A DNA stretch of 64,000 nucleotides from a virus. Within the stretch, counting starts at the first letter, position 1. Each line of letters opens with the position of its first letter. The stretch is taken from the IMG/VR virus record IMGVR_UViG_3300035666_000005, positions 32,001 to 96,000 of that record; one strand, written 5' to 3'. A program made the translations under genes and the position numbers. Positions 32,610-51,835 of this stretch are shown here, in pieces. The notes below the pieces were generated by a model, which was not told where the DNA came from, ran no database searches, and saw nothing but the letters and a program-made list of their open reading frames with translations.

Positions 32610-34178
32610 CTAAGGCATTCTGAAGTAAGTTGCGCTAAAATTAAATTCTCTCTCTGATGGAGAGTATGAATATGAAACATTTGAAATATAACCAATATTA
32701 GGAGCTAAACTTCTGGCTTTTGATAAATATTGTGATAATGAAACATCTGCTTTTCCATTTAAAACAATATTATAAGTTGTATTGTTTTCCAACAAATTCC
32801 TTTGTATTTGGGCAATTTCTTTTTTACCGACAATATTAAAAGTACTAAATAAATTTCTATTATAATCTTCTTGCACATTACTTATAATTTTTGTGAAAGG
32901 TCCGGTTTCTTGTATAGAGCTACTAGAATTATAAGATTTATTATATTTAACAGAACCTTGTATTTCCGAATGAGTTTCTGAAGAAGAAACTTCTTTTAAA
33001 GTAACCCCAGGTACATAATTAGTAATTCTATTTTTAATTTGAGATTTTTTGCTATTGTATAAAGCTAATGCTTTTTGATATTTTGTATTTGTTATATTAA
33101 CTTCACGAACCCCAATAATTGTTCCGTCTTCGCTTCCAGTAATTTCTCCGCTTTCATTTTTTTCGATATTAATGCTATATTCCCAGAATCCTTGTTCGGC
33201 TATTAATTCTCGTGAAGTCGTATATGAAATAGAGTAAGAAACCCTGCCTTCAAAAACTACAGAAGTAAAATTTTTAGTAATTGGTGTTGGTATTAAACTT
33301 CCATACTTAGCGACATTATAAGAATTAGATAAGTTTGATAAAGAACTATTTAATAATTGAAGAGCACGCGTATAAGCCGCATCATATCGCGCATTTACAG
33401 TCCCAGCAATATTAGATACACATTCGACATTTTCAGTCGCAATAATTATTCCATCTTGTTGATATGAGATTGATGTATTTCTTGTTACTAAAACATTATC
33501 AGAGCTTTGACTTTCTCTTGGATATAAATCATAACTGACATTAAAACTATAAGTATTTGTTATTGGGTCATACGCTTGTTCGTAATACTTTTTAACAGAT
33601 TTTTGATACTGGCCGGTAATTAAACTAGTTAAAGAATTATTATTAATAAATTTTTCTATAATGTTTTTTGCAACTAATCTATTATTGGCTTGATTTTTAA
33701 CCGGAGGTATTAATGACAAAGAAATTGTTTGACTATAAGAATCTTTTATGCCCTCTCCTTTTGTAAAAGTACTAGATTCTGAAAAACTTTCTAAAAATTT
33801 AAAATTCGAATCAGATATTGAGCCATTTAAACCTTCTATAGAAGTATTAATACTGCCATCTTGAGGTATAACAATATTTACAGAATATCTTTTATCATTT
33901 ACGTCATCTCCTTCTGGGCCAGAGGTAAAATTTGTTATATACCCACTTCCAAAAGAAACTCCATTAATTGTAATGGGTTGATAAAAATTAGCGCTACTTG
34001 CAAAAATTGTATTTTCTAAATTATTAAGCTGAGCATGAATTGCATTATAAGTAGTTGAAGACAGGTCTAAAAAAATACCTTCGACTGTTATTTCTAGAAC
34101 TGTCTTCCAACGCAAATTCTCTCCGAAAAATTCGGAACGACTATTAGCGTTTAATATTTGAACATTTGGAAAATTCAT
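32610..34178 (-). CDS. putative distal tail/baseplate protein
   Basis: immediately downstream of the tape measure. Confidence 0.5.
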   Translation of the reverse strand: MNFPNVQILNANSRSEFFGENLRWKTVLEITVEGIFLDLSSTTYNAIHAQLNNLENTIFASSANFYQPITINGVSFGSGYITNFTSGPEGDDVNDKRYSVNIVIPQDGSINTSIEGLNGSISDSNFKFLESFSESSTFTKGEGIKDSYSQTISLSLIPPVKNQANNRLVAKNIIEKFINNNSLTSLITGQYQKSVKKYYEQAYDPITNTYSFNVSYDLYPRESQSSDNVLVTRNTSISYQQDGIIIATENVECVSNIAGTVNARYDAAYTRALQLLNSSLSNLSNSYNVAKYGSLIPTPITKNFTSVVFEGRVSYSISYTTSRELIAEQGFWEYSINIEKNESGEITGSEDGTIIGVREVNITNTKYQKALALYNSKKSQIKNRITNYVPGVTLKEVSSSETHSEIQGSVKYNKSYNSSSSIQETGPFTKIISNVQEDYNRNLFSTFNIVGKKEIAQIQRNLLENNTTYNIVLNGKADVSLSQYLSKARSLAPNIGYISNVSYSYSPSEREFNFSATYFRMP

Positions 34179-34188
34179 ATTATGCTAA

Positions 34189-37100
34189 TCATCTAGTTCT
34201 CGGTGCAACGCGTGGCAATATCCCCTGTCTTTCTGCGGAAGCGACCATTTCTGCAGCGCGACCATATTTCTGATCCATTTCGCTTTTGATTTGAGTAATC
34301 AGTGGACCGACTCTTGCTTCAATTTCTGAACCGAGTTCTTTTGCGTAATCTTGGGTTTTTCCTCCGGTCTGGGCTTCGTTTACGGTTAAACCGCCCAAGC
34401 TAACAGAAACCGCAGAAAATTCTGGAACAGAATTGGCAAAGTTGGGAATGTACATACGATTAGCCATTGCCATTCTTTCTTTCGCAATATTATTTTTTTC
34501 TTGTGGTGTATTAAAAGTTGCCATTCCTTCGGGATTATTTAATCCCTGGACTTCTGGTTGACGTTTTTGATAAACTTCGTTTGGAGCAAAGCCAGCATTG
34601 ACTTCGTCCATAAATGAATTTATTTTAGGCAAAAAGCCTTCTGAGTAATTTTTAATTCTAGCGTTTGCGTTATTTTTTTCCATTTCGCGCAATACTTCTT
34701 GTGCTGGCCGTCCATCAATAAGCCCAGCCCCGCCAGGACCATAAGTGGGCTGCTCAGAATTTAAAGGGGATCCCGTTTTTGGGTCAAGACCAGCAGCAAT
34801 CATGGCTCTATCATAGGCGGGATCAGATGGACGATTCGTCCGACCTTCTGCTAAGACTTCTCGCGTTGGGCGACCGTCAATAAAACCTTGACTACGTTGA
34901 TCCTTTGGAATTCCTACGATTTCATCGATTACAGATTCGTTTCTAGCTCTTTGATATAAAGCTTCTTGATCTCTTCCGTAAGCCATCGCTCTATCATAAC
35001 CCTCATTCGGATCTATTCCCTGTTTAGCCCACTCTGCATAAGCTTGTTTTACAGGATCATTCTTTTCATGCTTTTCGTAAATTTCTCTCAGTGACTCATA
35101 TCTGCCTTGTTCATATAAGCGTTTGAATTCTTGTGTTTTCGCCATCAAAGCCCTTTTTTGGTCCATAGATTGGCGGGTTGGCCTATTATAAAAACCTTCT
35201 TGGCCAGAAAGTGCTTGGGTATAAGCTTCTACCAAGCTTTGTAGCATGAATTTGGCATTTGCTTGGGTAGTTCTTTCTGCGCGGCGAATTTCTGTTGTGG
35301 GTTTTATTCCGGCGCGGTCTGTAGATGTAGCGATATTAAATGTTCCGCCAGCCCCAGGTCCGCGCAAACCAAGCCGTTGTGCATCAACAGTAAACGTACC
35401 CGCTCCACCATATTCATCAATTTCATAACGATCACCAGTCATTTCATAACTTCTTGCTAAAGTCTCGCGTCCTCTTTTAATAACTGCTTCTGTTCTTTTA
35501 ATAACTGCTTCTGTTCTTGCTCGTTCTTTAGCCCTTTGAGCGGCTAATTTATCTCTTGCCATCATTTGTTTATCGCTTTGGCGAGATTTGTTCCATTCTT
35601 TTTGTCTATAAAATAAAGTACTTAAATTATATAATTCTCTTGGGTTCAAAAAGTCGCTTGCGTTAGCTCCGGTTTTTCTAAATTCTGAAACTAAAGGTTC
35701 AGCAGCCTTATCATAAGATTTTTCTATTTCATTTATTTTTTCAAGAGTTTTGTCACGTTCTTTTATTAAATTATTTAATTGATCATTATCTTTATATAGT
35801 GATGGATCCCATCCAAAATATTCTTTTAATCTACGATCTCTTTCGGGGGAAGTTAAATCTAATTCTGCCAAATTGTTCCAAGCTTGTTTTGAACGATTTT
35901 CGTCCCAGTTAGCTCTTTTTGCCATGTGATTATAAAAGCTCTTTTTTTTCTCTTCCTGAAAAATGTCAACAAGAGTATTGAGTTCAGTTTTTGACTTCGT
36001 TAAAGGATCTAACTCTTTTTTATATTTTTGATTTATTTCGTTTGCTTGTTTGATAAGACTATAAGGTATTTCTGGCATTGGCACAAAACCTTCTGCGAAA
36101 TTTGGAATATAACCTTCCGCCATGTTTTTGAAAGGATTTTTTATAATTTCCGGCTTTTTCTTTTTCCTGCGGATATATTTTCCGTCTTTATCAAAATAAG
36201 GATTTGGTTTAAATTTCGGATTTTTGAGAAGAAAAAGCTCGTTTCGAAGTGCCTGCTTTTTGCCGTAATCTTTATCTTGATAACCAAAGTCACCAGGTTC
36301 TGGCGTGCGAGGAATCTCATATTCAAGCTCAGAGATTCTTTGGTATAGCTCCCACTCTGGAGTATCCAAAGCACTCATGATGCTTCCCATCCCACTCGTT
36401 ATTCTTTGATTCGATGATGACCCAGAAATGCCCGACTTTGGAACAAAACCTTCCGCCATGTTTTTGAAAGGATTTTTAATTTCCGGCTTTTTCTTTTTCC
36501 TGCGGATATATTTTCCGTCTTTATCAAAATAAGGATTTGGTTTAACGCCATCTTTTGTAAGAATTTCTGCTTTTGGATTTTGAAGAAGAAAAAGCTCTCT
36601 TTCAAGTTGTTCTAATTCGACTCTTTGCAGATATGATACTGGGGGTGTTAATTGTTTAATTTTTGTTTTAACTGATAAAATCCTACTTTCTAATTCGTGA
36701 CGTGGATCGTCAAGATATTTATCAAGTTCTGTCGTATCGAGTTTTGGCAACGATCCTTTTGCCGCGCGTTGCATATCACGAGTTAAAAGAGCATCTTCTC
36801 CGGTCCCCATGTAATTTTTAATTAATTGTTCTCCTATATTCGCAACAACAGGTGCGCCATTAAAATTGGGTATGAATGTGGGACGATCTGATGGGCGTGC
36901 GCCACCAACGCCTCTTTTTACGTCGCGCTTTTCTGCGATCATTGCAGGAATGGCTTCTAAAGGAATCGATCCAGACGAATATGTTTTCGGAAGTTCTGGC
37001 TTTGGTGCAGTTCTATCTATAACGGGTTTTTCAGTTGGCAGGGTTGCGTTAGAAAAAGGATCTTGTAAAAATTTTGCTATTTTTAAGTCAGCACTATTTT

Positions 37101-40100
37101 GCGTATTTTGAATAGCCTTTAAAATTTCTTCAAGAGTTTTATTCGCGGCAGAAAATTGCAAAGATATAATTTTATTAGTATCCCCCGCAAGAAGCGATAG
37201 AGCGCTATCACCACCTTCGCCGAGTAATTTTTGTAATTCTGGCGGGAGTGAAGATTTTGCCTGTTCAATAAGTTTTTGATTTAATTCTCCAACTTTATTT
37301 TCGCCTTCTACTTGTTGTGTCGCAACTGTTTTACTATAACGTTTAATAAGTTCTGCATCAGATAATTGAGCAGCTTCCGGCTCCCCAATTTGTTCGGCGA
37401 TTGATCTCCTAAAGCCTTCTAAGATTTCTCTTCCAGCCTCTCCTTCTACTCCGCCAAGTCCACTGATGACATTCGTTAATTGATTTTCAATATCTAATGC
37501 CCTAGCATCACGAATTGCGCTAATAACCGCGCTATTTTGACCTAACTCGGGGCCAAGGTTACGCCCAGTAATTTTACTTAATTCGCTAACAACTCTTTGC
37601 AAGTTCCTACCAACTTCAATAATGCCTTTTTCTCCAGTTGGTTCCCCTATAATTTTTAAATTTGCAACGGCTTTATCAAGACCTTCTGTGATACTGATAT
37701 CATCATTAATAAAAGCCTGCAAACCACCAAAAGCACTATTAATAGAGGTTATTAGTTCGCGTAAACTTTCTTGAAATTTTTGATTGGCAAGAATTGTTTT
37801 TTGCTCGATTAAAACTGCTTTATTTTTTACGAGTTCTTGATTAGTTTTATTTATGGCCTCACGAATAGCGTCTAAACGTTTTTCACCTTCGGGGTCACCT
37901 TCGGGAATTTGTAGTGCTTGTGCAATTTCAGATAATTTAGCTTCTACGTCAAAACCAGTAAAAGTTGTCGGGTCTCCGATATCCAATAAACTACGAAACT
38001 GCTCTATATCAAAACCTTGTTTAACTGCTTCAGCTAAAACTCCTGCGGTTTCTAAATTTGCTTCGGCATTTTTTTGTGCATTATCGTCTCCGCCGATTGT
38101 ACTCAAAGCTGCAAAAGATTGTCTTTGTTGTTCAAGAAATGCGCTACCAATTAAACTAATTGTTTCCCCAACAGAATCTTTTATCGTATTGGCAAAATCC
38201 CCTTCTATTCTAAGAAGCTCTCCTTGTGTTTTACTGTCTGCCCGTCCAGCAGGGGTAGTTATTCCAAAAAGTTCTTCTTGAACGGCTTTTGTTTCAAATT
38301 GCGATACGCCGATGTTTGTTCCAGATTTTCTAATAGATGATTCACCCAAAAGTTGTAAATCAAGGGCAGACTGGCTTTGTCGCGCTAATTTCGCATAATT
38401 AGATTGTACGGTTTGTAAAGTTTTAGTTATTAATGCTATTACTTTATTGTTTTCACCGCTATTTCTCCCCGTCGCCTCTAAAGACGCTTTTAATTTATTT
38501 GCGGGGTCCGCAAGTTCGGCTATTAATTTTAAACCAACGCTAGGATTAAGTTTAAGAACAGCAACAAGATCATTAATATTACTTTTACTTAAACCACTAA
38601 GAGGGGCTGTTTGAGTTAAAAGGTTTTCAAACTCTTCAAATATTTTATTCGCTTCATCTGTTGCGAAACCGGTAGGGCCGCCATCTGTTATTAAAGACCT
38701 CCGAGATATTTCCGATAATTGATTTATGCTATTTTCATCTAATTGCGTAATATTAATAATATCAGAAAAATTTTCTCCAATTTTGTCAAATTGTTTTTCA
38801 GAAATATTACCAGTAGATCTAGGCAGGGATTCAACTAAACTTGTTACAGCTAAATTTTTTTGCTGCGCTAGTGTATTTTCTAAAACAGCATTTGTATTTT
38901 CTCCGATTACTTTTTGTAGAGATATAAAATCTTGATTTATTACAGCGGCGCTAGCTCCAGAAACTAATTCCGGAGTATCTCTAAATTCTTTTCTAATAAA
39001 TGAAAGTAAATCGGCTTCTAATTGGCCAGCTCTCTCGCCTTGACCAGCTTCTCTTAATTGTTTAATCTGTTCAAAACTAGTTTGAACTTTTTGTCCCGCG
39101 TCATTTATCTTTGTAAGATTTTCAGAAGCCTTTTGTGCGGCGGCAGATAATTCTGGAATATCGGTAGACGCTTGTTTAATAACATCTATTAGCCCAAGCA
39201 AAGCTCCAGCGCTACCACCAATTGCCGCGCCAACAAGTGGATTTGGTGCCAGCATTGCCCCAAGACCAGCAAAAGATCCCACTTGACCCAGAGCGCTAGC
39301 CCCAGCACCTAATGTTCTATCTGCTTTGGTTTCTTTCCCAATGGCATTCGCAATTGTTTCTGCAATAATTGGAGCTGCGATGGTTAAACCAATACCGCCT
39401 GCGCCAATAGCTGCGCCAGCTCTTTGACCACCTGTAGCTCCGTATCTTCCTTCTAACCCTCGAGCTTGGGCCTCTTCACCTGTTATTTTTCCCATTGCGA
39501 CGAGTTGAGTATTAGCTGCTTTTTGAGCCTTTGTTAATTCTCCTGTTACCCGACCAGCTTCTTTATTTTTTTGAGTTAATTCAGTTAAACTTTGTTTATA
39601 AGAATCTCCAAAACCTTGAAGGCCAAAACCTAAAAATCCAATTTGAGTTGCAAGAGCCCCGAGTGAAGATCCTAAATCTGCTGCTTGGGTATCTTCTGGT
39701 GCGAAGTTTGGAACAAAACCGCGAGCGAGACCTTGGGAGGCCGCCGAATTTTGAATCGCGCGCTTTAGACCTTCTGGATGATCTTTTTTAATCATCGCAT
39801 TAAAATTAGACGATTGTCCGGGCTGGCGAACATATTGCATTCCTTTGTATTCGTCAAGCACAGCCCCTTTTCCGGCTTTTTTCTCTGTCTGTATAGCTCT
39901 TTCTCTAGCTTCTGTAATTGTTTTAGCAAAATTTGGAATAAAGCCAGCAGCTTTTCCTACAATACCAAATCTATCCCTTAAAGCTTGTCTTATCGCAACA
40001 CTTCCAGTAACCCCCTCTTTTCTTAATTGGTCTACTGCGGCAGATCTTTCTTTAAGATAAGCGGCTCCAGCTTTACCACTAGTTTTTTGAACAGTTGCTC

Positions 40101-43100
40101 CAGGTTTAGTTTCATTAAGAAGCTTTTGTAAAACTTCATTCGTTAATTCTGGAGATCTTTTTGCATCATATATCCCAGGAGCATTATTAAATATTGATCT
40201 TAGTCTTGGACTGATCTTACGAAAATCAATTCCGGCGTTCTGTTTTCTAACTTGATTCTGTAACAATGTTGTAATACCGCCTTCAAAAGCAACACCTACA
40301 GCGCCTTTTGCGGCACCAGCGTTTGGAAGTTCATCGGCAGATTTTAAGAAATTAAAACCACCCAATGACTGACCAAATTGATTAGCTTGTTTTACTAAGA
40401 AATCATCTATCTCTGTATCTAAATCTGGTAGTTGTGATTTAAGTTTGTCTTTATTTATTCCTGCTACTGGAATATTACCTGTATATTGTTGTTTTAAATA
40501 TGTTGCAGTGGCTGGCGCTAATTCATATGGTCCAGAAAGCCCAGGATAAATAAGAGATAAAACTTTTTTACCAAGTTTATTTGGAATTTTATCTAAATTT
40601 CCTAATTGAATTGGAGGGTTTTTTGTTTGGGCAAAATTTGGGATAAAGCCAGAAGCTAAATTTTTAAATGGAGCATAAGATAAAATAATATTTTTTAATT
40701 TTAATTCATCAATAGTTCTATTTTTATATTTACCTCCAGCAGTTTGACCTTCATATTGTAAAGCTTTTGCGATTAATATATTATCTGAAACTTTTCTTTG
40801 TGTTATTTTAGATTCTACTAAATAACTACCCCCCTGTTTTTTGACTAAAAAGTCCGCCCCAAATAAATCACCTTGCTTTTCTGCTACGCGACCTTTAGAA
40901 CCAAAACGTCGCTGGGAATCTATTTCCCCCATTGCCCCTTTAATATTTGTATTATTAGAACGATCTTTTTTGGGGTCTAATAATGTTTGTGGTTTAATTT
41001 TATCTGTAAATTTAGAAATTGGTATTCCGCGATATTGCGAATTTTGGAAAATTGAGGCAACAGAAGAAGGATTTGAAGAAGCTTGATTTCTTATATTTTT
41101 AATAATATTATCTGCTTCTTTAGTATATTCTTTTACATTTTTAGGTAATGGTAATCTTTTTATGTTTGGCCTAAAATATTCATCTTTTATTCCTTTATCT
41201 TTCGAATCTCCAACATTATATAAGTTTTGCAATAACCCTGCGGATCTTGACGCTTGTTTTTGTAAATTAGCAATTGTATCAACCGCGAAATTTGGAATAA
41301 AACCTTTTGCTTTATTTCTATCACTCTTATCTAAAATACTTCCACTTTCGCCATTAGCGATCATCTTTGTCGCTTCTTTAATTCCGTTTCCATATTTTGG
41401 AATTACTGCTGTTTCGCCTGTATTGGCAAAATTTCTTATTTGTAATTCTTGATTATTTGCTTCAAAAGATTTGCCCCCAATTTTTCCTACACCACGAACA
41501 GCCTTAACATTAGATGTAGCTCCTAATACTTTCGCTTGAAACTCTTCAGCAAAATTAGGAATATACCCACCAGCTTTTCCAGGTTTTGAAGTTTTTGCAA
41601 CGGGAACTCCACCAGCAACTGTAACACTACCAGACCGAATAAATTGTGACGCAATTTTTGCAGAAATAGCTTCTTGTTTTTGTAATTCTAAAGTTTGTGC
41701 TCTTAAACTATTTAATAAAATTTCAGCGCCTTTATTTAAACCAGCGCTTCCTTGCTGCATTAATTTAAATAGTTCTGGATTTTTTTGTAAAATTTGTGCT
41801 ACACTTTGCTGTAATTGCTGTTGTTGTTTAGAAGCTGTATTTAAATTTAAAAGTTCTTTTAAACTTCCAGTCGCAAATTTTGCCAAATCTGAAAAAAGTT
41901 TAATAAAAATTCCGCCAATTAGTGCAAGTCCTGGGCCAGCAATTACTTGACCTAATCCATCTAAAATACCTTTTCCTAATGTGGCTCCCACTCCTTGCCC
42001 ATCAGATTCATTAATACCACCAAGAATCTCATTCGTATTACCTACAACCCTATCAAAAGCTGGGCCAAATAATCTCTCACCAATTCCAGCCCCAGCCTGT
42101 TTAGCATTTTCTCTTAAAGCGTTTAATTGGGCAGCGTAAGTTTTATTTAATTCTTCATTACGACGAATAGCTTGGTCAGTAGTAGAGGCAGCGACCTGTA
42201 AAGCGTTATTGTATATAGAATATTCTTTACCTAAGTCTGCCAATGCAGATTTTAAAATGTTAATTTGGAATACGCCGCCAACTTTTTCTGCGACCTCTGC
42301 TTGTTGTAACGTTCCAAGTTGATCGTAAACTTTAGCAAGATCTGTTAATAAATTAATAGTACTTTTAATTTCTCCAGAAGAATCTCTTGTATTAACTCCC
42401 AAGCCTTCTAGTAAATCAACAACTTTAGTTCTTTGAAGTCTTGTGAAAATAGTTTTAAAGGAGTTACCGATTACCGCGCCACCACGAGCAGTTGTTTGTT
42501 GAGCCGAAGTAACAATGGCTATGAGTTCATTTAACGAAACGCCTGATTGAGCCGCACTACTACCAACACGACTAATTGCTTCTGCAAGATCTGCAGAACT
42601 TACCGCAAAAGCTGCATCAACATTAGCAAACTTATTAACAATTTCTGTCGCCGTTACGGCTTGGCTAGCAAAAGAGTTTACTGACGCGGTAAGAGCTTCA
42701 ACACTTTTAGCGGCATCCAATCCACTCAAACGAGAAAGAATTAAGGCCTCGTTAGTTCTTTTTAATGTTTCTGCGACACCCAAACCTTGACGAGAAAATT
42801 CTGTAGCGGCTTTGGCAACTTCTGCGAAACTTTGCCCAGTATTTTTAGCGATACTAAATAAATTAGAACCAAATTTATTTAATTCAGAAGAAGAGACATT
42901 TAAAATAACATTAATATCTGCTAAAGCTTTTTGGGTTTCTATGACAGAGCTGGCTAAAGCAGTAAAAGCTCTTTGTACTCCAAAAATAATTCCAGCACTA
43001 GCACCGAAAGCGATAACACGCGCATTAGAAGCATCTAACGATTTAGTAAATTCATTTACTTTACCAGTAATCCTTCCAAGAGGCTGGTCGCCCCTTGTCT

Positions 43101-43232: not shown

Positions 43233-44255
43233 TTATCTATTTTCACGCGCCTTTAAATACTGTTCTTTTTCTAAAGTTCCTCCAGCTTCTTGAGCCATTT
43301 GCAATAATGTTTTGCCACCTTTTAATTTATCTATCTGTGTGCCCATCTTTTTTAAATCTTCGGATGTAGCTCCAACCGTGCTACTAACCATATTATTGCC
43401 ACCAGTTTTTTTTCTGCTTTTGATAGGAGATCCCTTTTTATCTGGGGTTTGATTTTCTACCCATAAGACAAATTTTTCGGCGTCAGCCACAACATCATCT
43501 GGAACAGGCTTGCCATTTTCTGCGTAATTTCTAATTAAATTCTTATACATTTTACCATATACTAATAAATCAATTTGATATTTAGTGCATAAAACTGTGG
43601 GTTTACCCCAAAAACTATAAGCGTCTTCATTCAAATAAACTAAATTTTGAAAAAATCCAGAAGCCGCGACATGTTTTAAACTCAAAGCGCCAAAAACATT
43701 CGAATACTTGTTAAAAGCCTCTTTTATTTTATCAGAAAAACCGTCTGATAAATTGTAATATTCTTCTTGAGAGAAAGCTTGTTCTGTTAATTCTCGATTT
43801 TTAAAGGTTAAAGCAATGACTGTTTCATCTAAAAATCGTTTTGATGTATAATCTTCTGCCGTAAAGCTTACAATTTCATTACGTTCTTTGGCAAAAGTCA
43901 TTAAAATACCTTGAGTTCTACGAATTTGTTTATCTATGCCTTCCCGCTGAGAAGGGAGAACTAACTTGGATTTTGTTTTGATTAAATTTGTAACGGTCTT
44001 TTTTAATCCCTGTATCTCCATTTCCTTTTCTTTTGACCACCACCCCTCCTCTATGGCTTCTCTAATTTTTTCTTCTTCTGTCGGAAGCCCTTGACGCTGA
44101 ACATCTTTTAAAATTAAATCATAATTATTATAAATACTAAAGTATTCAGAAAAACTAGGATGTTTAAAATAAAATATTTTTTTACTAATCTTTTCTTCTG
44201 AAAAGCCTTTTGCTATTTCATTATAGATACGACCATACTCAAAATCTTTATCCAC
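43233..44255 (-). CDS. putative tail assembly chaperone
   Basis: directly upstream of the tape measure; GTG start; helical and charged. Confidence 0.55.
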   Translation of the reverse strand: MDKDFEYGRIYNEIAKGFSEEKISKKIFYFKHPSFSEYFSIYNNYDLILKDVQRQGLPTEEEKIREAIEEGWWSKEKEMEIQGLKKTVTNLIKTKSKLVLPSQREGIDKQIRRTQGILMTFAKERNEIVSFTAEDYTSKRFLDETVIALTFKNRELTEQAFSQEEYYNLSDGFSDKIKEAFNKYSNVFGALSLKHVAASGFFQNLVYLNEDAYSFWGKPTVLCTKYQIDLLVYGKMYKNLIRNYAENGKPVPDDVVADAEKFVLWVENQTPDKKGSPIKSRKKTGGNNMVSSTVGATSEDLKKMGTQIDKLKGGKTLLQMAQEAGGTLEKEQYLKARENR

Positions 44256-44256
44256 A

Positions 44257-45108
44257 TTATGCTGGAGTTACTGGAGTTGAAGAAACTTCTTCAGTATTGA
44301 TAGTTTCAATTTTTTCAACAACTACTTTTTCTTCAACTGTTTTTTCAGTAGAAACTATTTCAGTTTTTTCTTCGGCTTGGTCTTCAACAACAACTTCTTC
44401 AGATTCTTTAATTAAATTTTGATAAAAACTATCAAAGTCTTCTTCTGTTTCTACTTTACCTAAGAACCATAGAGTAATTAAATAAGTTAAACGTCTTATA
44501 GCGATAAGATTAATATTGTTTTCACTATTTAAATCTTCAAAAATATCATATGAATTTAATTTTTCATCGAAAGTTTCTCCATCAAAAAATGAAACATATT
44601 CACCATTCTTTTCAGTATAAGAAGTAAATAATACCCACCATAAAATGGTACGATTACGGGCTTTCGCTTCCGCAGTGTTCTCAAAAATTGAAATTTGTGA
44701 AGATTCAAAACTTTGAATTTCTTTTCTAATTTCATCTAATTCAATAATAATTTCGTCTGAGCGTTTTTTTTCTGCTTCGGTTCTTTCGCTTTCAGTTTTT
44801 ATTAAAATTGATTGTAATTCAAATGACGCGTCACGAAATTTTAGAAGAAGTTCTCCGTATACTTCTCTTTCTTTTTCACTAATACTTCCCCCGCCATTAG
44901 ATAAAATAGTTCCCCATGCGGCTTTAGGTAAGACCCCAGCTTTGGCAAAACGTGAAACTTCTTTAGCGTAAAATAATTCACCGTCTTCTTTTAGTTTACG
45001 GTTGGGTTTTAATAGGGCAAGCTTGGCTTTTTCTTCTACGGTTTCGCCATTATTTTTATTAACCTTATTGGTTACTTCAAATTTATACATCCACGTTTTG
45101 TTAGTCAT
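44257..45108 (-). CDS. putative tail assembly chaperone
   Basis: between tail tube and tape measure; coiled coil; acidic tail. Confidence 0.55.
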   Translation of the reverse strand: MTNKTWMYKFEVTNKVNKNNGETVEEKAKLALLKPNRKLKEDGELFYAKEVSRFAKAGVLPKAAWGTILSNGGGSISEKEREVYGELLLKFRDASFELQSILIKTESERTEAEKKRSDEIIIELDEIRKEIQSFESSQISIFENTAEAKARNRTILWWVLFTSYTEKNGEYVSFFDGETFDEKLNSYDIFEDLNSENNINLIAIRRLTYLITLWFLGKVETEEDFDSFYQNLIKESEEVVVEDQAEEKTEIVSTEKTVEEKVVVEKIETINTEEVSSTPVTPA

Positions 45109-45117
45109 ATATTTATA

Positions 45118-45342
45118 TTATTTGTTTTTAAGTTTAAAATCAAAATTATCTAATTCTTCTTCTATATTTCTATAGCAGTTATTTCCATGATCAAGAACGC
45201 GTTTACGCATTCTTTGGAATTCCTCATCAGTAATTTTATCTTGATCTTTAAGGTCTTCTAAAGAATAAAGAAAACTTAAATATAATTTTTTTACGTCTCT
45301 ATAAACGCAACCTTTTACAAAGTCATTTAAATCAATATTCAT
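45118..45342 (-). CDS. hypothetical protein (74 aa)
   Basis: ORF with AAGGA before the ATG and a GTGTAA element upstream. Confidence 0.65.
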   Translation of the reverse strand: MNIDLNDFVKGCVYRDVKKLYLSFLYSLEDLKDQDKITDEEFQRMRKRVLDHGNNCYRNIEEELDNFDFKLKNK

Positions 45343-45381
45343 CCTTTACAAACCTTTTACCTATTATTTCTTACACTATAT

Positions 45382-45414
45382 AAAAAAAACGGGCACTCGA
45401 AAGTGCCCGTTTTT
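45382..45414 (-). terminator. rho-independent terminator after the tail tube gene (potentially bidirectional)
   Basis: AAAAACGGGCACT-TTCG-AGTGCCCGTTTTTTTT. Confidence 0.9.
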
Positions 45415-45435
45415 AGATGAATAATTAATTTCTTA

Positions 45436-46539
45436 TTAAGAATTGAAAGAACCGGAAATAAAGACCCCTTTATTTACATCTTGCGGTCCGCCCAACTGTA
45501 CTTCGTAAGAAGCGGTCATTGTAGCATTATCACCGATTGCGCTCGAGAAACTTTGTGAAACAAGTTTAGCGCCTTTGAAAACATAGGCAAGAGCTGTAGG
45601 TTTATTGGCTTCGCAACCAGGTTCTTTCATCAAGATTGTAAATTCTTTTTCTGTTTCTCCGCAAAGAATATCAGCCAAATTACCATTGGCCAAATCTCCG
45701 ACTTCAGCATTAACTTCAAGAGTTGCTGTTACTGGGAAATCAATCTCACGCGAAAAGGCAAAACGATTTCCAAGTTTTTGAAGTGGAGTACGAGAAAGAT
45801 CAAACGAAAGTGTAAAATCTTGTACTTTTAAATCCGCTCCGTCAAAACCTAAAACTTTATTAGAATCTAAACTGAAAATAATATCGCCAGGTTGAAGGGC
45901 TGTAGGAATATCAGCGCCTGTGATACTTTGAGCAAGAGGCAATTTAAAAAATCTATCCGTTAAGTTGGCTCCGTCAACAGGGTTAATAGCGGGAATCACT
46001 TCTTGACCAGTAGCATTTCCATAAACGCGAACATTTAAACCTTCAATTTCAACATCGGCTGTAGGAATTTCGCCAACAGCGGCGCTAACACTATAAGAAG
46101 TTAAGAAACCATTACCTACGCCGATAACACCACTTTTAGATCCAGCGTATCCAGCAGCATCATTACCTTCTTCAACGATTAAAAGATAGTAATTTTTTTC
46201 ATCAGTAGCTTTCGTTAAAAGACCGGAAATACAAGAGCGTAAAGCGGAAGAATCGGTTCCAGTTCCATAAACATTTAAACCAAGATTTGTTTCATTTTGA
46301 CCGTTTGTTAAATAATATGAAAAACTAGCTGTAACGTCAGGATTTTCAACTTCAATACGGTCAATAGCAGCCAAGTTTCCGAATTGGTTTACATCAGTAA
46401 AATTACGAGTAAAATCTTCGTCAAAACTTTGGACACGAGAAAGTTGCTTGATATCATTTGCGCCAGTTTGCATGCCAGTTGCACCAACTTGGCTTGCATA
46501 AAGGGCTAACACATTGTAAATTGTTCTATTTCTTGCCAT
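45436..46539 (-). CDS. major tail (tube) protein
   Basis: RVQSF...DVNQFG, FSREIDFPVTATL; two-domain beta protein; position; followed by a strong terminator. Confidence 0.75.
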   Translation of the reverse strand: MARNRTIYNVLALYASQVGATGMQTGANDIKQLSRVQSFDEDFTRNFTDVNQFGNLAAIDRIEVENPDVTASFSYYLTNGQNETNLGLNVYGTGTDSSALRSCISGLLTKATDEKNYYLLIVEEGNDAAGYAGSKSGVIGVGNGFLTSYSVSAAVGEIPTADVEIEGLNVRVYGNATGQEVIPAINPVDGANLTDRFFKLPLAQSITGADIPTALQPGDIIFSLDSNKVLGFDGADLKVQDFTLSFDLSRTPLQKLGNRFAFSREIDFPVTATLEVNAEVGDLANGNLADILCGETEKEFTILMKEPGCEANKPTALAYVFKGAKLVSQSFSSAIGDNATMTASYEVQLGGPQDVNKGVFISGSFNS

Positions 46540-46581
46540 ACTTATAATTACATTACATTCTTAAAGAAGACACTGTTTTTT

Positions 46582-47433
46582 TTAATAAATTCTTGGGTTT
46601 CTTATATCTGAAAGTTCAAAATCTATAAGTGCCGCAACACATTTTTTATTAATTTTTGCATTATCAATTTCGTCTAATTTGGACACTGTTACACGGTCGA
46701 TATGTACTAAATTGTAACGTGGTTGATTTTTACATAATTCTACATAATTAAAATTATTACCAGTTTTAAAATCACCAAAATAATTAAAAGGGAAATCATT
46801 GGGGCTTAATACTGGAAATACTTTTCTAGCGCTATCACTTAATACGGAAATAAGCCCGTCAAGAGAAAAACTATTAGAAGCTAATACAATACAACGAACC
46901 ATTGTTTGAGTAGAATCTTCGCCGCCAAAAGCAAAAGGAACGTTTTCCCCCATCCGGTGTTTAATAAAAATACAAGGATATGGTGTATCTAAATAACCTA
47001 AAGCGCCAGTTACTTGTGTGACTTTTGGAGTAATATTATAAGCTTTTTCAAAAAGTAATTTTTCTTCACGCTCGTCTGTATAATAAATGCTGTACTCCTT
47101 AAAACTATAACGAGCAGTTACATTATTAAAATTAATTCCATTATTTAAAATTGCACGACCCTTATTAAAATCAATATTTAAGCCACTAACCCCACGAGCC
47201 ATATAATTTCCATTTACAAAAACTCCTGAAGGAATATTTACACTTGGAACGCTACTATCATAAACCCATTGACGAAATGGCGCCCCATAAACAGAATTAT
47301 TTGGAAAATTTGGATCTGGAGAATTATAAAGTTTTCCACTATAATTTATGAATGCCTCGCCGCGAGTTAAGATTTCATGGTCTAGCCATAAATAAAAACT
47401 AGACATTAAATTTGTAATATAAGCCGCTTTCAT
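46582..47433 (-). CDS. putative tail terminator/completion protein
   Basis: synteny; PYPCIFI...PFAFGG. Confidence 0.55.
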   Translation of the reverse strand: MKAAYITNLMSSFYLWLDHEILTRGEAFINYSGKLYNSPDPNFPNNSVYGAPFRQWVYDSSVPSVNIPSGVFVNGNYMARGVSGLNIDFNKGRAILNNGINFNNVTARYSFKEYSIYYTDEREEKLLFEKAYNITPKVTQVTGALGYLDTPYPCIFIKHRMGENVPFAFGGEDSTQTMVRCIVLASNSFSLDGLISVLSDSARKVFPVLSPNDFPFNYFGDFKTGNNFNYVELCKNQPRYNLVHIDRVTVSKLDEIDNAKINKKCVAALIDFELSDIRNPRIY

Positions 47434-48011
47434 TATTTAGCCCCCAGTCTTGTAAGAAATTTATTATACATATCACTAAAATATCTTACATTTCTAAACC
47501 TACGATTTGAATAATTATATTTACTTTGAATACCACCACCAGAACGCGAATTCGCAAAACGGCCATATAAGTAGGCTCCCAATCCAGAAATTCCACGCTC
47601 AATATCTAATAACCAGCTACGACCACCCTCCCAAGGTAAACGACTGATTACAGCAAATTCTTCTTTTGATGGGATATTTACTTTAAATTGGAATGTAGTC
47701 CCTTTATTTTTAATAAAATTACCCAAATTAATTTTTTGTATTAATAATTTTACTGGACCTGTTGGGTTTGACCCATTATTAAAACCTAGAAAAGAAAATA
47801 AATTACCATAACCACCAAGAGTTCCTGATATATTAGATGCATTCTCTCCTCCGTCAAGTTCTTGTGTTACTGGGTGCGATTCAAACTCGGCTCTAAATAA
47901 AGCTTTTTCTTTTTCTACTTCTTTCTGAACAATATTTCTAACCATTCTTTGTACAGAGCGGCTTTCCAATATTTGTTTTTGAATAAGCTTTTTGTTAATT
48001 TTTCCAGCCAT
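47433..48011 (-). CDS. putative neck protein
   Basis: basic protein, synteny in the head-tail block. Confidence 0.5.
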   Translation of the reverse strand: MAGKINKKLIQKQILESRSVQRMVRNIVQKEVEKEKALFRAEFESHPVTQELDGGENASNISGTLGGYGNLFSFLGFNNGSNPTGPVKLLIQKINLGNFIKNKGTTFQFKVNIPSKEEFAVISRLPWEGGRSWLLDIERGISGLGAYLYGRFANSRSGGGIQSKYNYSNRRFRNVRYFSDMYNKFLTRLGAK

Positions 48012-48442
48012 TACTCGCTCTCCTTAAAAAATAATGTATAAAAATCAATATTAAATAATCCATGAGGACGATTTGTACCAAGGGCTTGAACTGGACGACC
48101 ATCAATTTCAATACGTTCGGCATCACTAATAAAATCTACAAAATCTTTTTTCGCCTTAATGCGGCAAATATTACCACGAACTTCTTCACGAATTTCTGGA
48201 AATCCACCCATTTTAGATGGATCTTGCCACTGAATGCGGCAATCAAATTTTCCGCTTACTGGAATATAAGTAATCTCAATTGATTCTTGTTCATTATATA
48301 GAAAATTGTAATTAGGATCGCTTGAAACAACTATCCGCTCTGGAGTTTTCCATGCCATAACGGGACGTGCAAACGTGTCATGCAAATTATTGAATTCATT
48401 TGCCAATGATAATTTTTCCGCATCTGAAACAAAACTTGGCAT
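48011..48442 (-). CDS. putative head closure protein
   Basis: 143-aa beta protein, synteny. Confidence 0.5.
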   Translation of the reverse strand: MPSFVSDAEKLSLANEFNNLHDTFARPVMAWKTPERIVVSSDPNYNFLYNEQESIEITYIPVSGKFDCRIQWQDPSKMGGFPEIREEVRGNICRIKAKKDFVDFISDAERIEIDGRPVQALGTNRPHGLFNIDFYTLFFKESE

Positions 48443-48443
48443 A

Positions 48444-48977
48444 TTAATTTAGTGTTCTTTGATATTCTTGAATTATATAATGTGAAATGCCTTCGGTATC
48501 ATCTCCAGCAATTTGATCGGGAATTGCATTATATTTTAAGTACATTTTTACAGTTTTATCTAATTCCGCTTTGCAGTCTTGAGCTAAACCCCTAAAGTTT
48601 TTAGATATTTCATTTTTATTAATTTTTGTAATAGTGCTATCGCCCTCTTTTAAAGTAGTCCAATCACTACCAATAGTTGCAGAACTTTTTGCCAAGTTTC
48701 TAGACTGGTTTTTTAAAAAATCGCAATCAAATATTATTTTATAAATAGCTAATTGATCATTGTTTGGTTCTGGGGTAATACCATAACCAGTAATAAGATT
48801 TTGTTCATTTTTATAGGCAACTCCAGAAAAAGATGTACCTATTAAATTATTTAGTTTCCCTAAATTAGAGTTATCTATAAACCAAGAAGTCAACCGTGCT
48901 GGTGTATAATCTATAGGCTCTCCTAAATCATAATAAACGTTAGTAACAAATTGTGTTAAATAATCTTGACAGTTCAC
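48444..48977 (-). CDS. putative head-tail adaptor
   Basis: helical; LKEGDSTIT strand typical of adaptors; GTG start with GTGTAA element 8 nt upstream. Confidence 0.5.
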   Translation of the reverse strand: MNCQDYLTQFVTNVYYDLGEPIDYTPARLTSWFIDNSNLGKLNNLIGTSFSGVAYKNEQNLITGYGITPEPNNDQLAIYKIIFDCDFLKNQSRNLAKSSATIGSDWTTLKEGDSTITKINKNEISKNFRGLAQDCKAELDKTVKMYLKYNAIPDQIAGDDTEGISHYIIQEYQRTLN

Positions 48978-48996
48978 ACATTATTTTACACAAAAA

Positions 48997-49374
48997 TTAG
49001 GCACCTTCTCTTAAGATCTTTTTGGCTTTAGCGTCTAAATCATCAACGGATTTAACTTGGCCAGTAGCGACATTACTACCATAACGTGAATTCCATTTTA
49101 CAAACTCTTGGGCTAAACGATCTGTAAGAACTTTTCTATCTGGCGTGGGAACTAGTCCGATCTTATATGCATGTGCTTGTAAATCAGTCATATTCATTTC
49201 AGCTAATTGTCCACGATATTCTTCTGAGCTATTAGCCGTGTATATAGAAAGAGTTTCTCCCAAAATTTCATCTAAAGAAGAGGGTTGTTTTTGAACTTTT
49301 TCTTCTTTTCCGTGTACTTGTAACATTTCTTTTTTTGAAGGGCGTCCTCTTTTCTTTTTAGGTTGAGTATTCAT
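48997..49374 (-). CDS. small protein with AT-hook and Rho_N-like helix pair
   Basis: KKKRGRPSKK; LAEMNMTDLQAHAYKIGL. Confidence 0.55.
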   Translation of the reverse strand: MNTQPKKKRGRPSKKEMLQVHGKEEKVQKQPSSLDEILGETLSIYTANSSEEYRGQLAEMNMTDLQAHAYKIGLVPTPDRKVLTDRLAQEFVKWNSRYGSNVATGQVKSVDDLDAKAKKILREGA

Positions 49375-49417
49375 CTTAAATATTATATTATTTTATATAA
49401 TAATAATCTAATTTTTA

Positions 49418-49447
49418 TAAAAAAAGAGCCACCCTTTCGGGTGGCCC
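49418..49447 (-). terminator. rho-independent terminator after the major capsid gene
   Basis: GCCACCC-GAAA-GGGTGGC followed by TCTTTTTTT. Confidence 0.88.
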
Positions 49448-49471
49448 TTAATTTTTAAACTACTAGTTTAA

Positions 49472-50596
49472 TTATACAATTAAACCAACAGCGGCACGAG
49501 CGTCAACAGCTACGCGGCCTTCTTCTACATAACTGTAGAAACCAACTTTTTGGCTACGAGCCAAGAATTGATCGTCAGGAAGAACCTTGACTTGACCACG
49601 GCTTTCGCTTTGGATTGCGACTGGGCGCAAGAAAGCGTTACGGCTAGCGTCGATACCGAGGATTAACTCGTCGTCAGCGCTTGTGAATGTTGTTCCACCA
49701 GTTAGGCCATATTCATTGAATTGTGTTGTACCAGCGAAGGTATCGAACAAGTCGTTATATTTGCGGCCCGCACCGAGTTCAAGCAATTCATGAATTGTTA
49801 CGCCGAAGATTTCGTTCGTACCAGCGGCACGATAGATTTCTTCACGAACGCTGTCAGGAAGAGCTACCGAAGTAGCACCACTTGTAGTAACAGCACCAGA
49901 ACGGGTGTTCATTGGCTGATAAGCGAACGCACGAATTTGTTCTTTGACTTCTGGGCTTACGAAGATGTCGGTCAAGCCACGGCTCTGAAGAGCTTGTGGC
50001 GTACCGCCTGTGTAAGCAGCATTAAGTCTACGGACTAAAGTCCAAAGTTTATTCATGTCGTCGAGTTGGAAGGTATCCTGAGTACCGACACGGAAAACGT
50101 GTTTAGTACTGTTTGTGGAAGCTTCGGCCAAGAGTTTGAGAATAACAGCCCAAGCATTACGTTCTTGTTTTACAAGAATTTCATTGGCCATACGTTCTAA
50201 ACCAGCGGCTACAACGTCGAGACGTGCTCTACGAACATAACGCTTGTCCATACTGATTGCACTGTCAAGACGATAGGTATTAACCTTCATTTCTTGCATG
50301 CCTTGGACAAAGTTTGTAGGAAGTCCACCGCCAACAGTTTGTGACCAAACGCTGATGTGTCCTTCATTAAGACCATAGTATAAGTCGAGAGGAATCGATG
50401 GGGAATCGTCTTCGTCAAATTCTACGTCACGATAAATCATTGAAGCAGTACCGGCTTGTAAGAGAACTTGCTGAACAACATCACTGATGAATGCAGCAAA
50501 AGCTTCTTGAGCTTCTACAGCTACAGTTTTGTTGTCTGAAGCAAGAGCCTTGATAAGCTCGATTTGCTCAGGATTTTTGTCGAATTGAATTTTCAT
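49472..50596 (-). CDS. major capsid protein (HK97 fold)
   Basis: 374 aa after protease-scaffold and decoration genes; strongly biased codon use; followed by a terminator. Confidence 0.85.
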   Translation of the reverse strand: MKIQFDKNPEQIELIKALASDNKTVAVEAQEAFAAFISDVVQQVLLQAGTASMIYRDVEFDEDDSPSIPLDLYYGLNEGHISVWSQTVGGGLPTNFVQGMQEMKVNTYRLDSAISMDKRYVRRARLDVVAAGLERMANEILVKQERNAWAVILKLLAEASTNSTKHVFRVGTQDTFQLDDMNKLWTLVRRLNAAYTGGTPQALQSRGLTDIFVSPEVKEQIRAFAYQPMNTRSGAVTTSGATSVALPDSVREEIYRAAGTNEIFGVTIHELLELGAGRKYNDLFDTFAGTTQFNEYGLTGGTTFTSADDELILGIDASRNAFLRPVAIQSESRGQVKVLPDDQFLARSQKVGFYSYVEEGRVAVDARAAVGLIV

Positions 50597-50622
50597 ATTT
50601 TTTATAATTTCTTTCTAATTGA

Positions 50623-51159
50623 TTAGAGTTCTACCTTGAGTAAAGCATATCCTTCGTCGTTTTTAGGTCCGAGGAATTTACCAACTGTTGCGCTGCCATA
50701 GGCAACTACTTTAAGGTCTCCACCGCCAGCGTCGGAAACAGCTGCGCCGCTACCGAATCCTGGGGTGCCAACAATACCGTTAACAAGAACAAGACCCTTC
50801 GTAAGAATAGGACATGCTTGACCACTGATGATGACATCCATCTCAGCTGCCTTGCGTGGGTTGAAAATTAATTGTTCACCGTTCTCATCAACTTTGCGAA
50901 CGTCTTTGAGCAATAATCCAACGATTGCACCTTTAGCTGCGCCAGAAGCGGCTGGGCTAACAGTCCAAGGAACATTGAATTGTGCTGAAAGAGTATTCCC
51001 GTAGGATGAGAGGTTATCTAAAGATGAAGCGTCTTTGAGATTAACACCATTGCTGTCGGCTGTAACTACAGTACCTTTATTGGCACTTACGGCATTGACG
51101 GCGAAAAGGTTAATAACATCATGCTCATCATAATCTCTGAATGGTTTTAAATTTGCCAT
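50623..51159 (-). CDS. capsid decoration/cement protein
   Basis: 178 aa, Gly/Ala/Val-rich, between scaffold and capsid genes; codon bias like the capsid gene. Confidence 0.65.
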   Translation of the reverse strand: MANLKPFRDYDEHDVINLFAVNAVSANKGTVVTADSNGVNLKDASSLDNLSSYGNTLSAQFNVPWTVSPAASGAAKGAIVGLLLKDVRKVDENGEQLIFNPRKAAEMDVIISGQACPILTKGLVLVNGIVGTPGFGSGAAVSDAGGGDLKVVAYGSATVGKFLGPKNDEGYALLKVEL

Positions 51160-51181
51160 AATATTTTTTTCTTTCTTTTAT

Positions 51182-51835
51182 TTATTTGATTTTTACGCTA
51201 TTTTTATTGAAAGCGGCACCGATTTTTTCAACCAGTGACACTTCTTGAGGAGAGGAAGCGTTTGGAAGGACTTCTTCCGTTACCTCTGCACTCGAAATTA
51301 CTTCTTCTACAGTTTTTTCTTCGCTAGCTACAACTTCGGAAGTTTCGGAAGCTTTTTCTTCTTTTACTTCTTCCTTCATTTCTTCTTTTTTGTACTCAGC
51401 TTTAGCGGCTTTCTTTTTAGCGGCTGCGAATGTAGAGAACTTCTTATACCATTTTTCGAACTGTTCGTCGTTTTCAATGGCGTTTAAATCTTCTGCGATG
51501 ATACTACGATCTTCATCAGTAAGATCGAACTCTTCATCAAGCAAGGCCATACGGCGTTGGAAATTGGCTTCAATTTCTTTAGCTTTGAGGTCTTCTTGAA
51601 TCTTCGTGAATTCTTCTTTTACTTTTTCACTATCAGCCTTGATTGCTTCGAGATCTGTTTTCAATGTTGAAATTTGATCTTCGGCAGCTTTAAGTGCTGT
51701 TTCTTTTTCTTCAACTTTTGATTTCCATTCTTGGGCAAGTTCTGCAATACGATTCGAAATAAATTCACGAACAGCACTAGCAGCAACTTCCTTGATGGAA
51801 TCGTCCGTAATATCATCAATATTTTTTAGTTGCAT
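51182..51835 (-). CDS. nested in-frame scaffolding protein (217 aa)
   Basis: internal ATG (MQLKNIDD) 8 nt after ATGTAA, at the start of the coiled-coil domain. Confidence 0.55.
   Translation of the reverse strand: MQLKNIDDITDDSIKEVAASAVREFISNRIAELAQEWKSKVEEKETALKAAEDQISTLKTDLEAIKADSEKVKEEFTKIQEDLKAKEIEANFQRRMALLDEEFDLTDEDRSIIAEDLNAIENDEQFEKWYKKFSTFAAAKKKAAKAEYKKEEMKEEVKEEKASETSEVVASEEKTVEEVISSAEVTEEVLPNASSPQEVSLVEKIGAAFNKNSVKIK

Follow-up and report, generated by a model that had tools for sequence, protein, structure and literature searches.

The question raised by this locus is why the tail tape measure protein (TMP) of a phage should contain what looks like a nuclease, and whether that element is a fixed part of the protein or one of several that can occupy the same place. 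The window, by which we mean the whole stretch of 64,000 nucleotides that was analysed, comprises bases 32001-96000 of the virus record IMGVR_UViG_3300035666_000005 in IMG/VR (120,876 bp; G+C about 30%; estimated completeness 80%). The element under study, here called cassette A, lies at 40657-41283 on the minus strand of the window and corresponds to residues 638-846 (209 amino acids, aa) of the TMP, P0001. A sequence-only reading of this DNA had proposed that the segment is a PD-(D/E)xK nuclease injected together with the genome, possibly attacking host or competitor DNA, or acting as a decoy. We favour the view that cassette A is an exchangeable nuclease, probably active, which the TMP carries as cargo and which is delivered with it, a view to which we give a probability of roughly one half. 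The strongest functional argument for it, missed by the sequence-only reading, is that the slot holding cassette A is shared with other nuclease families in related TMPs.

A fenced cassette with a predicted nuclease fold

By its sequence matches P0001 is a phage tail tape measure protein of the PF10145/TP901 type. It is a very long open reading frame (ORF) inside a run of large ORFs on the same strand, it matches PF10145 (PhageMin_Tail) over aa 116-307 (E = 4e-27; 95.8 bits against a cut-off of 33.2), and it is matched by ten PHROG TMP families with E values down to 3e-50.

Cassette A is enclosed by two copies of the heptapeptide GFIPNFA, at aa 631-637 and 849-855, and fills the whole stretch between them short of two residues. 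This is where the sequence-only reading had placed it, and the translated frame contains the strings quoted there, including NIKGAMGEIDSQRRFGSKGRVAEKQGDLFGADFLVKKQGGSYLVESKITQRK. The enclosing peptide, which we refer to as the fence or joint, has the form G[FY][IV]PNFA and is found in P0001 at aa 543, 631, 849, 1084, 1159 and 2361, and in variant form at aa 2249 and aa 2914; the two copies around cassette A are the second and third. Because synonymous codons differ among the eight copies, the fence is conserved as a peptide and not as a DNA repeat, and a DNA-level repeat as its basis was rejected on these grounds. The peptide is almost identically placed in related TMPs (about aa 543, 631, 850, 1085 and 1155). 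The fence may be a site of cleavage and release, a docking site or a guide for recombination.

Separately, the C-terminal third of the TMP contains a direct repeat of about 55-60 aa (aa about 2196-2367; window 36094-36610, minus strand). A 21-aa run starting PNPYFDKDGKYIRR is found twice in the protein, at aa 2219 and aa 2330, and both copies of the longer repeat end with a fence-type peptide, GFVPKSG (aa 2249) and GYIPNFAEGFVP (aa 2361).

Relatives of cassette A were found exclusively inside very large proteins. An exhaustive phmmer search with the 209 aa against 1.84 billion representatives gave ten proteins at E <= 1e-3, seven of which were TMP-size relatives; the other three were chance matches to repeat proteins. 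Querying a word index with aa 630-1100 retrieved 59 proteins of TMP size, of which nine contained cassette A and nearly all the neighbouring cassette B, as judged by BLAST. Further cassette A loci came from IMG/VR (5) and JGI metagenomes (6). The resulting family comprises 15 distinct copies with 27-84% identity, all within proteins of 1860-3524 aa, and the complete copies are flanked by fences, the upstream side of one (L006) being the exception. There were no free-standing relatives of cassette A (profile A1 against proteins of 110-385 aa) or of its core (profile A2 against proteins of 59-202 aa) at E <= 0.1, and none in a pattern scan of 185,579 prokaryote species represented by one genome each. 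Searches of GenBank phages with tblastn and megablast found no named family.

Conservation within the family falls on the residues that had been singled out in advance. The sequence-only reading had named an E...D...ExK arrangement from a single sequence, and had set conservation of these catalytic residues in homologues as a test. Eighteen of the 209 alignment columns are invariant across the 15 copies, and all four named residues (E120, D144, E157 and K159 in cassette numbering) are among them, the most distant homologue being 27% identical (p = 4e-5 for four pre-named residues, hypergeometric). Other invariant positions are L18, L21, D34, Y36, L46, Y53 and Y84 in the N-terminal half, and K173, which lies in the second core helix near the position of motif IV. 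Cassette A is under purifying selection. Between the window and L002, an 82%-identical relative, the ratio of nonsynonymous to synonymous substitution rates (dN/dS) was 0.126 for cassette A, 0.181 for its N-terminal half, 0.076 for its C-terminal half and 0.171 for the TMP core, values that are rough because the synonymous rate (dS) is near 1. The possibility that the segment acts as a decoy is therefore disfavoured, because a decoy requires neither the retention of four catalytic-type residues in every copy nor so low a ratio in the core.

AlphaFold2, given an alignment of 11 sequences, modelled cassette A with a mean predicted local distance difference test score (pLDDT) of 90.3 and a predicted template modelling score (pTM) of 0.86, which supports its description as a discrete, confidently predicted domain. 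In the model the C-terminal half consists of a helix (residues 104-127), three strands (133-136, 145-149 and 152-159), a second helix (167-181) and a further strand (199-203), in agreement with the helix-strand-strand scaffold that had been proposed. E120 is placed in the first of these helices, D144 directly before the strand 145-149, and E157 and K159 in the strand 152-159. The order of elements and the positions of the motifs are those of the PD-(D/E)xK fold on this predicted model. Their spacing (+24, +13, +2) is identical to that of E9, D33, E46 and K48 in Hjc (1gef), in which, as in cassette A, the first E is in helix 1, the D at the start of strand 2 and the ExK in strand 3. By topology and motif, cassette A is predicted to fit the PD-(D/E)xK superfamily, closest to its minimal Hjc and VRR-NUC-like members.

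The lists returned by fold searches were rich in nucleases. Among the matches listed, those titled nuclease, endonuclease or resolvase numbered 36 of 50 in one list (eight others in that list being DncV, aligned to helices 46-132), 23 of 42 in a second and 13 of 50 in a third. In BFVD, 27 of the 50 matches listed had nuclease-fold names (VRR-NUC eight times, restriction endonuclease five times, and others), and the remaining names among the matches listed were 'hydrolase' (2) and 'uncharacterized' (6), with 15 unnamed. Among the nearest named clusters in the ESM Atlas were Tox-REase-7 (0.88) and Tox-REase-3 (0.86), which lie under the tool's line of 0.9 and serve as leads only; the corresponding families, PF15649 and PF15647, were not listed by hmmscan up to E = 10.

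Two other matters concerning cassette A can be noted here. Its residues from about 26 to 56 (window 41115-41208, minus strand) gave a chance-level profile match to domain 1 of ArdA (PDB 2w82) over 30 residues, with E about 1.2-1.5; the match is probably noise and is not relied on. Domains of the ArdA type are a component of some injected polyvalent proteins. We considered an intein or Hint element and rejected it, there being no such Pfam match in P0001.

An exchangeable slot in related tape measure proteins

When the pieces between fences were clustered across relatives, the slot between the second and third copies was found to hold alternative, mutually unrelated cassettes. In 60 of 62 TMP-size relatives the slot holds exactly one of six cassette families, and two types never occur together. 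The tally is c3 in 18, cassette A in 13, c6 in 10, c5 in 10, c1s2 in 6 and c15 in 3, with none of these in the remaining 2.

The identity of one of the alternatives is well supported by sequence comparison: c6 is a member of the staphylococcal nuclease (SNase) family. A profile of seven c6 sequences matched a thermonuclease in the PDB with E = 5e-8, covering chain residues 16-140 of 143; a single c6 sequence reached PF00565 with E = 0.006 and 17.4 bits, under the cut-off of 21. Seven residues (D10, D12, R24, D29, E32, Y69 and R71) are invariant in all nine c6 copies compared, and align to the catalytic set of SNase. The c6 cassette is carried by P0013-P0017, P0022, P0024, P0026, P0040 and P0042, at about aa 630-860.

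The other four alternatives have invariant residues that can be arranged as E...D...(D/E)xK sets. These are E74, D105, E118 and K120 in c3 (17/17 copies), [DE]14, D34, D62 and K64 in c5 (10/10), E19, D51, D65 and K67 in c15 (3/3), and E122, D142, E153 and K155 in c1s2 (5/5). A profile of c3 had no match in the PDB. A similar set is found outside the slot in cassette B, the module on the other side of the third fence, which is present in 58 of the 62 related TMPs and is thus far commoner than cassette A. All 56 copies of cassette B that were compared share E116, D135, [DE]155, A156 and K157, a combination that may represent a second nuclease-like signature. Cassette B alone had no match in Pfam or the PDB, and its match to LPD38 in the ESM Atlas (0.83) is a weak lead only.

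As judged from sequence relationships, the flanks do not predict which cassette occupies the slot. Among TMPs with a cassette B 77-87% identical to that of the window, the slot contains c3, c15, c1s2 or c6, and two TMPs that do carry cassette A, P0006 and P0010, have a cassette B only 55% and 41% identical to the window's. BLAST comparisons with 12 relatives bearing other cassettes gave a similar picture. Similarity was broken at the slot in six of the 12, with break points at aa 637 (P0008, P0040, P0022 and P0020), 644 (P0007) and 689 (P0009), and restarted in five of the six at aa 849, 843, 829, 823 and 805; for P0022 the alignment picks up at aa 642, on a displaced part of P0022. The other six comparisons each gave one long alignment of low identity.

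Exchange at the same place is also suggested by lake-water metagenomes. The region 39900-41600 of the window recurs nearly unchanged in DNA runs from lake water and freshwater filed in 2016-2025. At least half of the sampled words were present in 13 of 24 runs, 4 of which may be the source of the record, and no RNA runs were among the 24 runs listed with the stretch. Cassette A was present with 0 differences in contig pieces from four runs, among the matches listed. One lake contig joins window position 40647 to 41288, with unspecified letters between them, and skips 640 bases, which is not a multiple of 3; the slot in this contig may contain a different cassette and not be empty. Another lake contig matches up to 40647 and then continues with 255 letters unlike the window. 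Both breaks at 40647 fall inside codons of the fence. Summed contig depth was lower over the interior of cassette A than over cassette B and the fence peptides, a pattern that relatives in the same water would produce if their flanks were shared and their cassettes were not.

Proposed role and competing explanations

On the reading that we favour, cassette A would be a self-contained folded domain built into the TMP. Its C-terminal half would form a PD-(D/E)xK core with the full E / D / ExK set for binding metal and water, and it would probably act as a divalent-metal-dependent phosphodiesterase on nucleic acid. It would occupy a bay whose place is constant in the TMPs of a group of lake phages, uncultured and low in G+C; the bay is delimited by the fence peptide, and recombination would swap unrelated nuclease modules there. 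The module would most likely be present in the virion, be deposited during infection at the host envelope, within it or in the cytoplasm, and cut host or rival nucleic acid prior to any expression of phage genes. Its substrate may be host DNA, rival elements or RNA.

TMPs exit the tail before the DNA and a TMP-fused enzyme of phage P23-45 works in the host, so cassette A is most likely virion-borne and delivered at infection. The P23-45 protein, gp96, is a TMP fused to a virion RNA polymerase, and its authors propose that the polymerase stays at the TMP pore and is active there while the genome enters (Chaban et al. 2024, PMC10770324).

With somewhat less confidence we offer a broader and tentative proposal. 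One fixed bay in the TMPs of a group of uncultured lake phages may be a hot-swappable nuclease holder, where six or more nuclease modules with no relationship to one another, one of SNase type and four or five resembling PD-(D/E)xK enzymes, are exchanged at a conserved heptapeptide joint. Beside it lies a second nuclease-like module, present in almost all of these TMPs, and in some cases a GNAT. A set of nucleases made in advance and specific to the strain would on this view be injected ahead of the phage DNA, as the phage-tail counterpart of polymorphic toxin systems. Inhibitors made by the host, or rival elements, would drive the arms race, and the joint would serve for release or docking.

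Several points weigh against active nuclease cargo. Some concern the fold. At the level of sequence cassette A belongs to no curated family: there was no match in Pfam (the segment at E <= 1; all 11 aligned members, E up to 10) or PHROGs, no significant match to the PDB by sequence or by profile, the only profile matches being at chance level (E about 1), and no match to PF01870 (Hjc) at E <= 10 in a six-frame search of the whole record. Every structural score in the fold searches was under the significance line of the tool concerned. The fold rests on one model, that from the 11-sequence alignment, because modelling of the isolated core from 6 sequences failed (pLDDT 40.9); and the register with Hjc is arithmetic from the ends of the alignment ranges, with no superposition seen. 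Other points concern the slot. The relatives were retrieved with a query spanning cassettes A and B, and the slot tallies are conditional on that. The E...D...(D/E)xK sets of c3, c5, c15, c1s2 and B were picked after the invariant residues had been seen. Comparisons by hhalign linked cassette A significantly to none of c3, c5, c6, c15, c1s2 and B, and linked none of these six to one another; the highest-ranking pair, B and c5, had E 0.004 and a probability of 8%. Finally, a non-specific nuclease at the site of DNA entry would endanger the phage's own DNA, and the DNA-modification families PF01555, PF00145, PF00303 and PF01702 are absent from this 80%-complete record. The restriction-endonuclease-type fold that had been claimed from the letters alone holds up in topology, in motif positions and in the dominance of nucleases in the fold lists, and falls short in its scores and in profile links, with none to UPF0102, Hjc or Tox-REase. 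As one paper on the PD-(D/E)xK superfamily notes, structure scores between its members can fall under threshold (PMC1913061, 2007).

These points bear differently on the explanations that compete with nuclease cargo. One is that cassette A has a nuclease fold and does not cut, and instead binds nucleic acid or fills space, gripping the leading end of the genome in the tail or anchoring the TMP at the entry pore. This would remove the problem of self-damage, would suit a basic domain (pI 9.9) in a protein that contacts the DNA end, and would be compatible with structural scores too weak to establish the geometry of an active site. Binding alone, however, needs no retention of all four catalytic-type residues, which are kept in 15 of 15 copies. 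In addition, the SNase homologue that fills the same slot has invariant catalytic residues, which favours chemistry over mere binding, and we regard a non-cutting role as unlikely. A second explanation accepts an active nuclease and places its work in the producing cell, late in infection, in the breakdown of host DNA or the processing of DNA for assembly, with fusion to the TMP serving for expression or sequestration. The TMP is made abundantly late in infection, folded domains of 200 aa fit poorly in the lumen of a tail tube, and the arrival of the module in the next host is a prediction. Set against this are the 15 copies, all embedded in TMPs and none free-standing, the resemblance of other cassettes of the array (GNAT) to the repertoire of injected polyvalent proteins, and the P23-45 enzyme, which is fused to a TMP and acts after injection; we consider action in the producing cell improbable.

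It is more improbable still, in our estimate, that there is no nuclease fold at all and that cassette A is a TMP-specific structural domain whose invariant acidic and basic residues mimic the motif by chance. E...D...ExK is a pattern of low information, and the sub-threshold scores, the failed domain-only model and the lack of a profile link to any nuclease family all speak for this explanation. It does not readily account for a pattern that was named before the homologues were seen and proved invariant at all four positions, for a placement in secondary structure and a spacing equal to those of Hjc, for fold-search lists homogeneous in nuclease folds, or for a slot shared with a significant SNase homologue. 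The least probable of the four is a selfish, homing-type cassette that cuts rival TMP alleles and so spreads from one co-infecting phage to another, with the joints as recombination arms and with no benefit to infection. Joints conserved as peptide with differing synonymous codons are not what this predicts, there is no empty slot in 60 of the 62 TMPs, and the decay common for homing endonucleases is not seen (15 of 15 copies intact; dN/dS 0.076 in the core). The module is, moreover, an in-frame part of a structural protein and not a free-standing ORF.

Neighbouring features and related systems

The features of the TMP gene are collected in Table 1.

Table 1. Positions in the window of the tape measure gene, the cassette array and candidate active-site residues (aa, residues of P0001; numbers in brackets after residues, position in cassette A).
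Feature	Window positions	Strand	Basis or remark
TMP gene P0001, 3001 aa	34189..43194	-	one open frame; PF10145 and PHROG TMP matches
TP901-type TMP core (aa 116-307)	42274..42849	-	PF10145 match
Glycine-rich hydrophobic segment (aa 413-436)	41887-41958	-	Kyte-Doolittle scan; upstream of cassette array
Joint copy 1, GYIPNFA (aa 543-549)	41548..41568	-	motif scan
81-aa module between joints 1 and 2 (aa 550-630)	41305..41547	-	kept in 23 relatives (cluster 2 of inter-fence pieces)
Joint copy 2, GFIPNFA (aa 631-637), upstream fence of cassette A	41284..41304	-	motif; BLAST break point
Cassette A, N-terminal half, mainly helical (aa 638-740)	40975..41283	-	AlphaFold2 model
Cassette A, C-terminal half	40657..40974	-	
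E757 (E120), motif I candidate, first core helix	40924..40926	-	invariant 15/15; codon checked
D781 (D144), motif II candidate, start of second core strand	40852..40854	-	invariant 15/15
E794-S-K796 (E157, K159), motif III (ExK) candidate, third core strand	40807..40815	-	invariant 15/15
Joint copy 3, GFIPNFA (aa 849-855), downstream fence of cassette A	40630..40650	-	motif; similarity to P0007 restarts at aa 849
Cassette B (aa 856-1083)	39946..40629	-	conserved neighbour; E...D...(D/E)-A-K invariants
Joint copy 4, GFIPNFA (aa 1084-1090)	39925..39945	-	motif scan
Joint copy 5, GFVPNFA (aa 1159-1165)	39700..39720	-	motif scan
Glycine-rich hydrophobic segments (aa 1259-1282 and 1318-1339)	39178..39420	-	Kyte-Doolittle scan; downstream of cassette array

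The array of fenced cassettes is not confined to nuclease-like modules. In two of the TMPs that bear cassette A, another fence-delimited cassette matches the GNAT acetyltransferase domain (PF00583), at aa 977-1024 of P0057 and aa 1556-1612 of P0062, with 29.2 and 24.9 bits against the Pfam cut-off of 20.7. Elsewhere in P0001, RTEAVIK is present as a small duplication (aa 2560 and aa 2567). The ten large ORFs beside the TMP gene (window 32610-34178 and 43233-53002, minus strand) had no PHROG match at E <= 1e-3, and the structural module thus appears very remote from described phages.

Enzymatic domains embedded in TMPs have precedents. The TMP of mycobacteriophage TM4 reportedly carries an Rpf-like cell-wall hydrolase motif and pb2 of T5 a peptidase domain, both said to be used at entry. 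Their substrate is peptidoglycan, whereas that of cassette A is predicted to be nucleic acid, and neither is known to have a cassette array with a repeated fence peptide. P23-45 gp96 is closer, in that a DNA-acting enzyme resides inside a giant TMP; it differs in having a single N-terminal RNA polymerase with demonstrated activity, whereas cassette A is a predicted nuclease in an internal, fenced array and is exchanged among relatives.

Other systems resemble the array in their modularity. Polyvalent proteins are giant, multi-domain proteins that are proposed to be delivered together with DNA and are linked to head or DNA-delivery genes; their effectors, DNases and GNATs among them, would act in the first stages of conflict with the host. 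In the study describing them, embedded metallopeptidases are proposed to separate the domains, a ParB-like DNase is not displaced by other DNases, and the term 'tape measure' has 0 occurrences (Iyer et al. 2017, PMC5512222). They share with P0001 the presence of several modules in one giant protein. The array described here differs in being carried by a TMP and in having a nuclease slot in which at least six families replace one another, and a Pfam scan of P0001 found no peptidase domain. In MuF polymorphic toxins a virion protein likewise carries variable domains, but the carrier is the head protein MuF, with one C-terminal toxin and an immunity gene, whereas cassette A is internal to a TMP (Jamet et al. 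2017, PMC5576092); an immunity gene for cassette A was neither sought nor encountered. Effectors of the Sle1 type in contractile injection systems (CIS) also have a modular carrier derived from a TMP, with a functional domain exchangeable between relatives; they are cargo of a bacterial tail-like particle with C-terminal domains, and the abstract mentions no nuclease slot or repeated fence peptide, whereas cassette A is internal and in a phage (Nagakubo et al. 2026, PMC13277306). In the literature searched we found no description of a TMP nuclease slot or fence peptide; relevant architectures may be listed in the supplementary material to Iyer et al. (2017).

TMPs are usually seen as rulers and channel formers, at most with cell-wall hydrolases, and the RNA polymerase fused to the TMP of P23-45 came as a surprise in 2024. 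If the modules described here were inactive, the finding would reduce to a modular, fast-evolving region of the TMP. If our reading is true, phages that fill the slot with differing nuclease families would be using the tail to deliver nucleases made in advance. The slot with its peptide fences also offers a natural scheme, open to testing in laboratory phage-host systems, by which foreign domains could be placed in the tails of siphophages.

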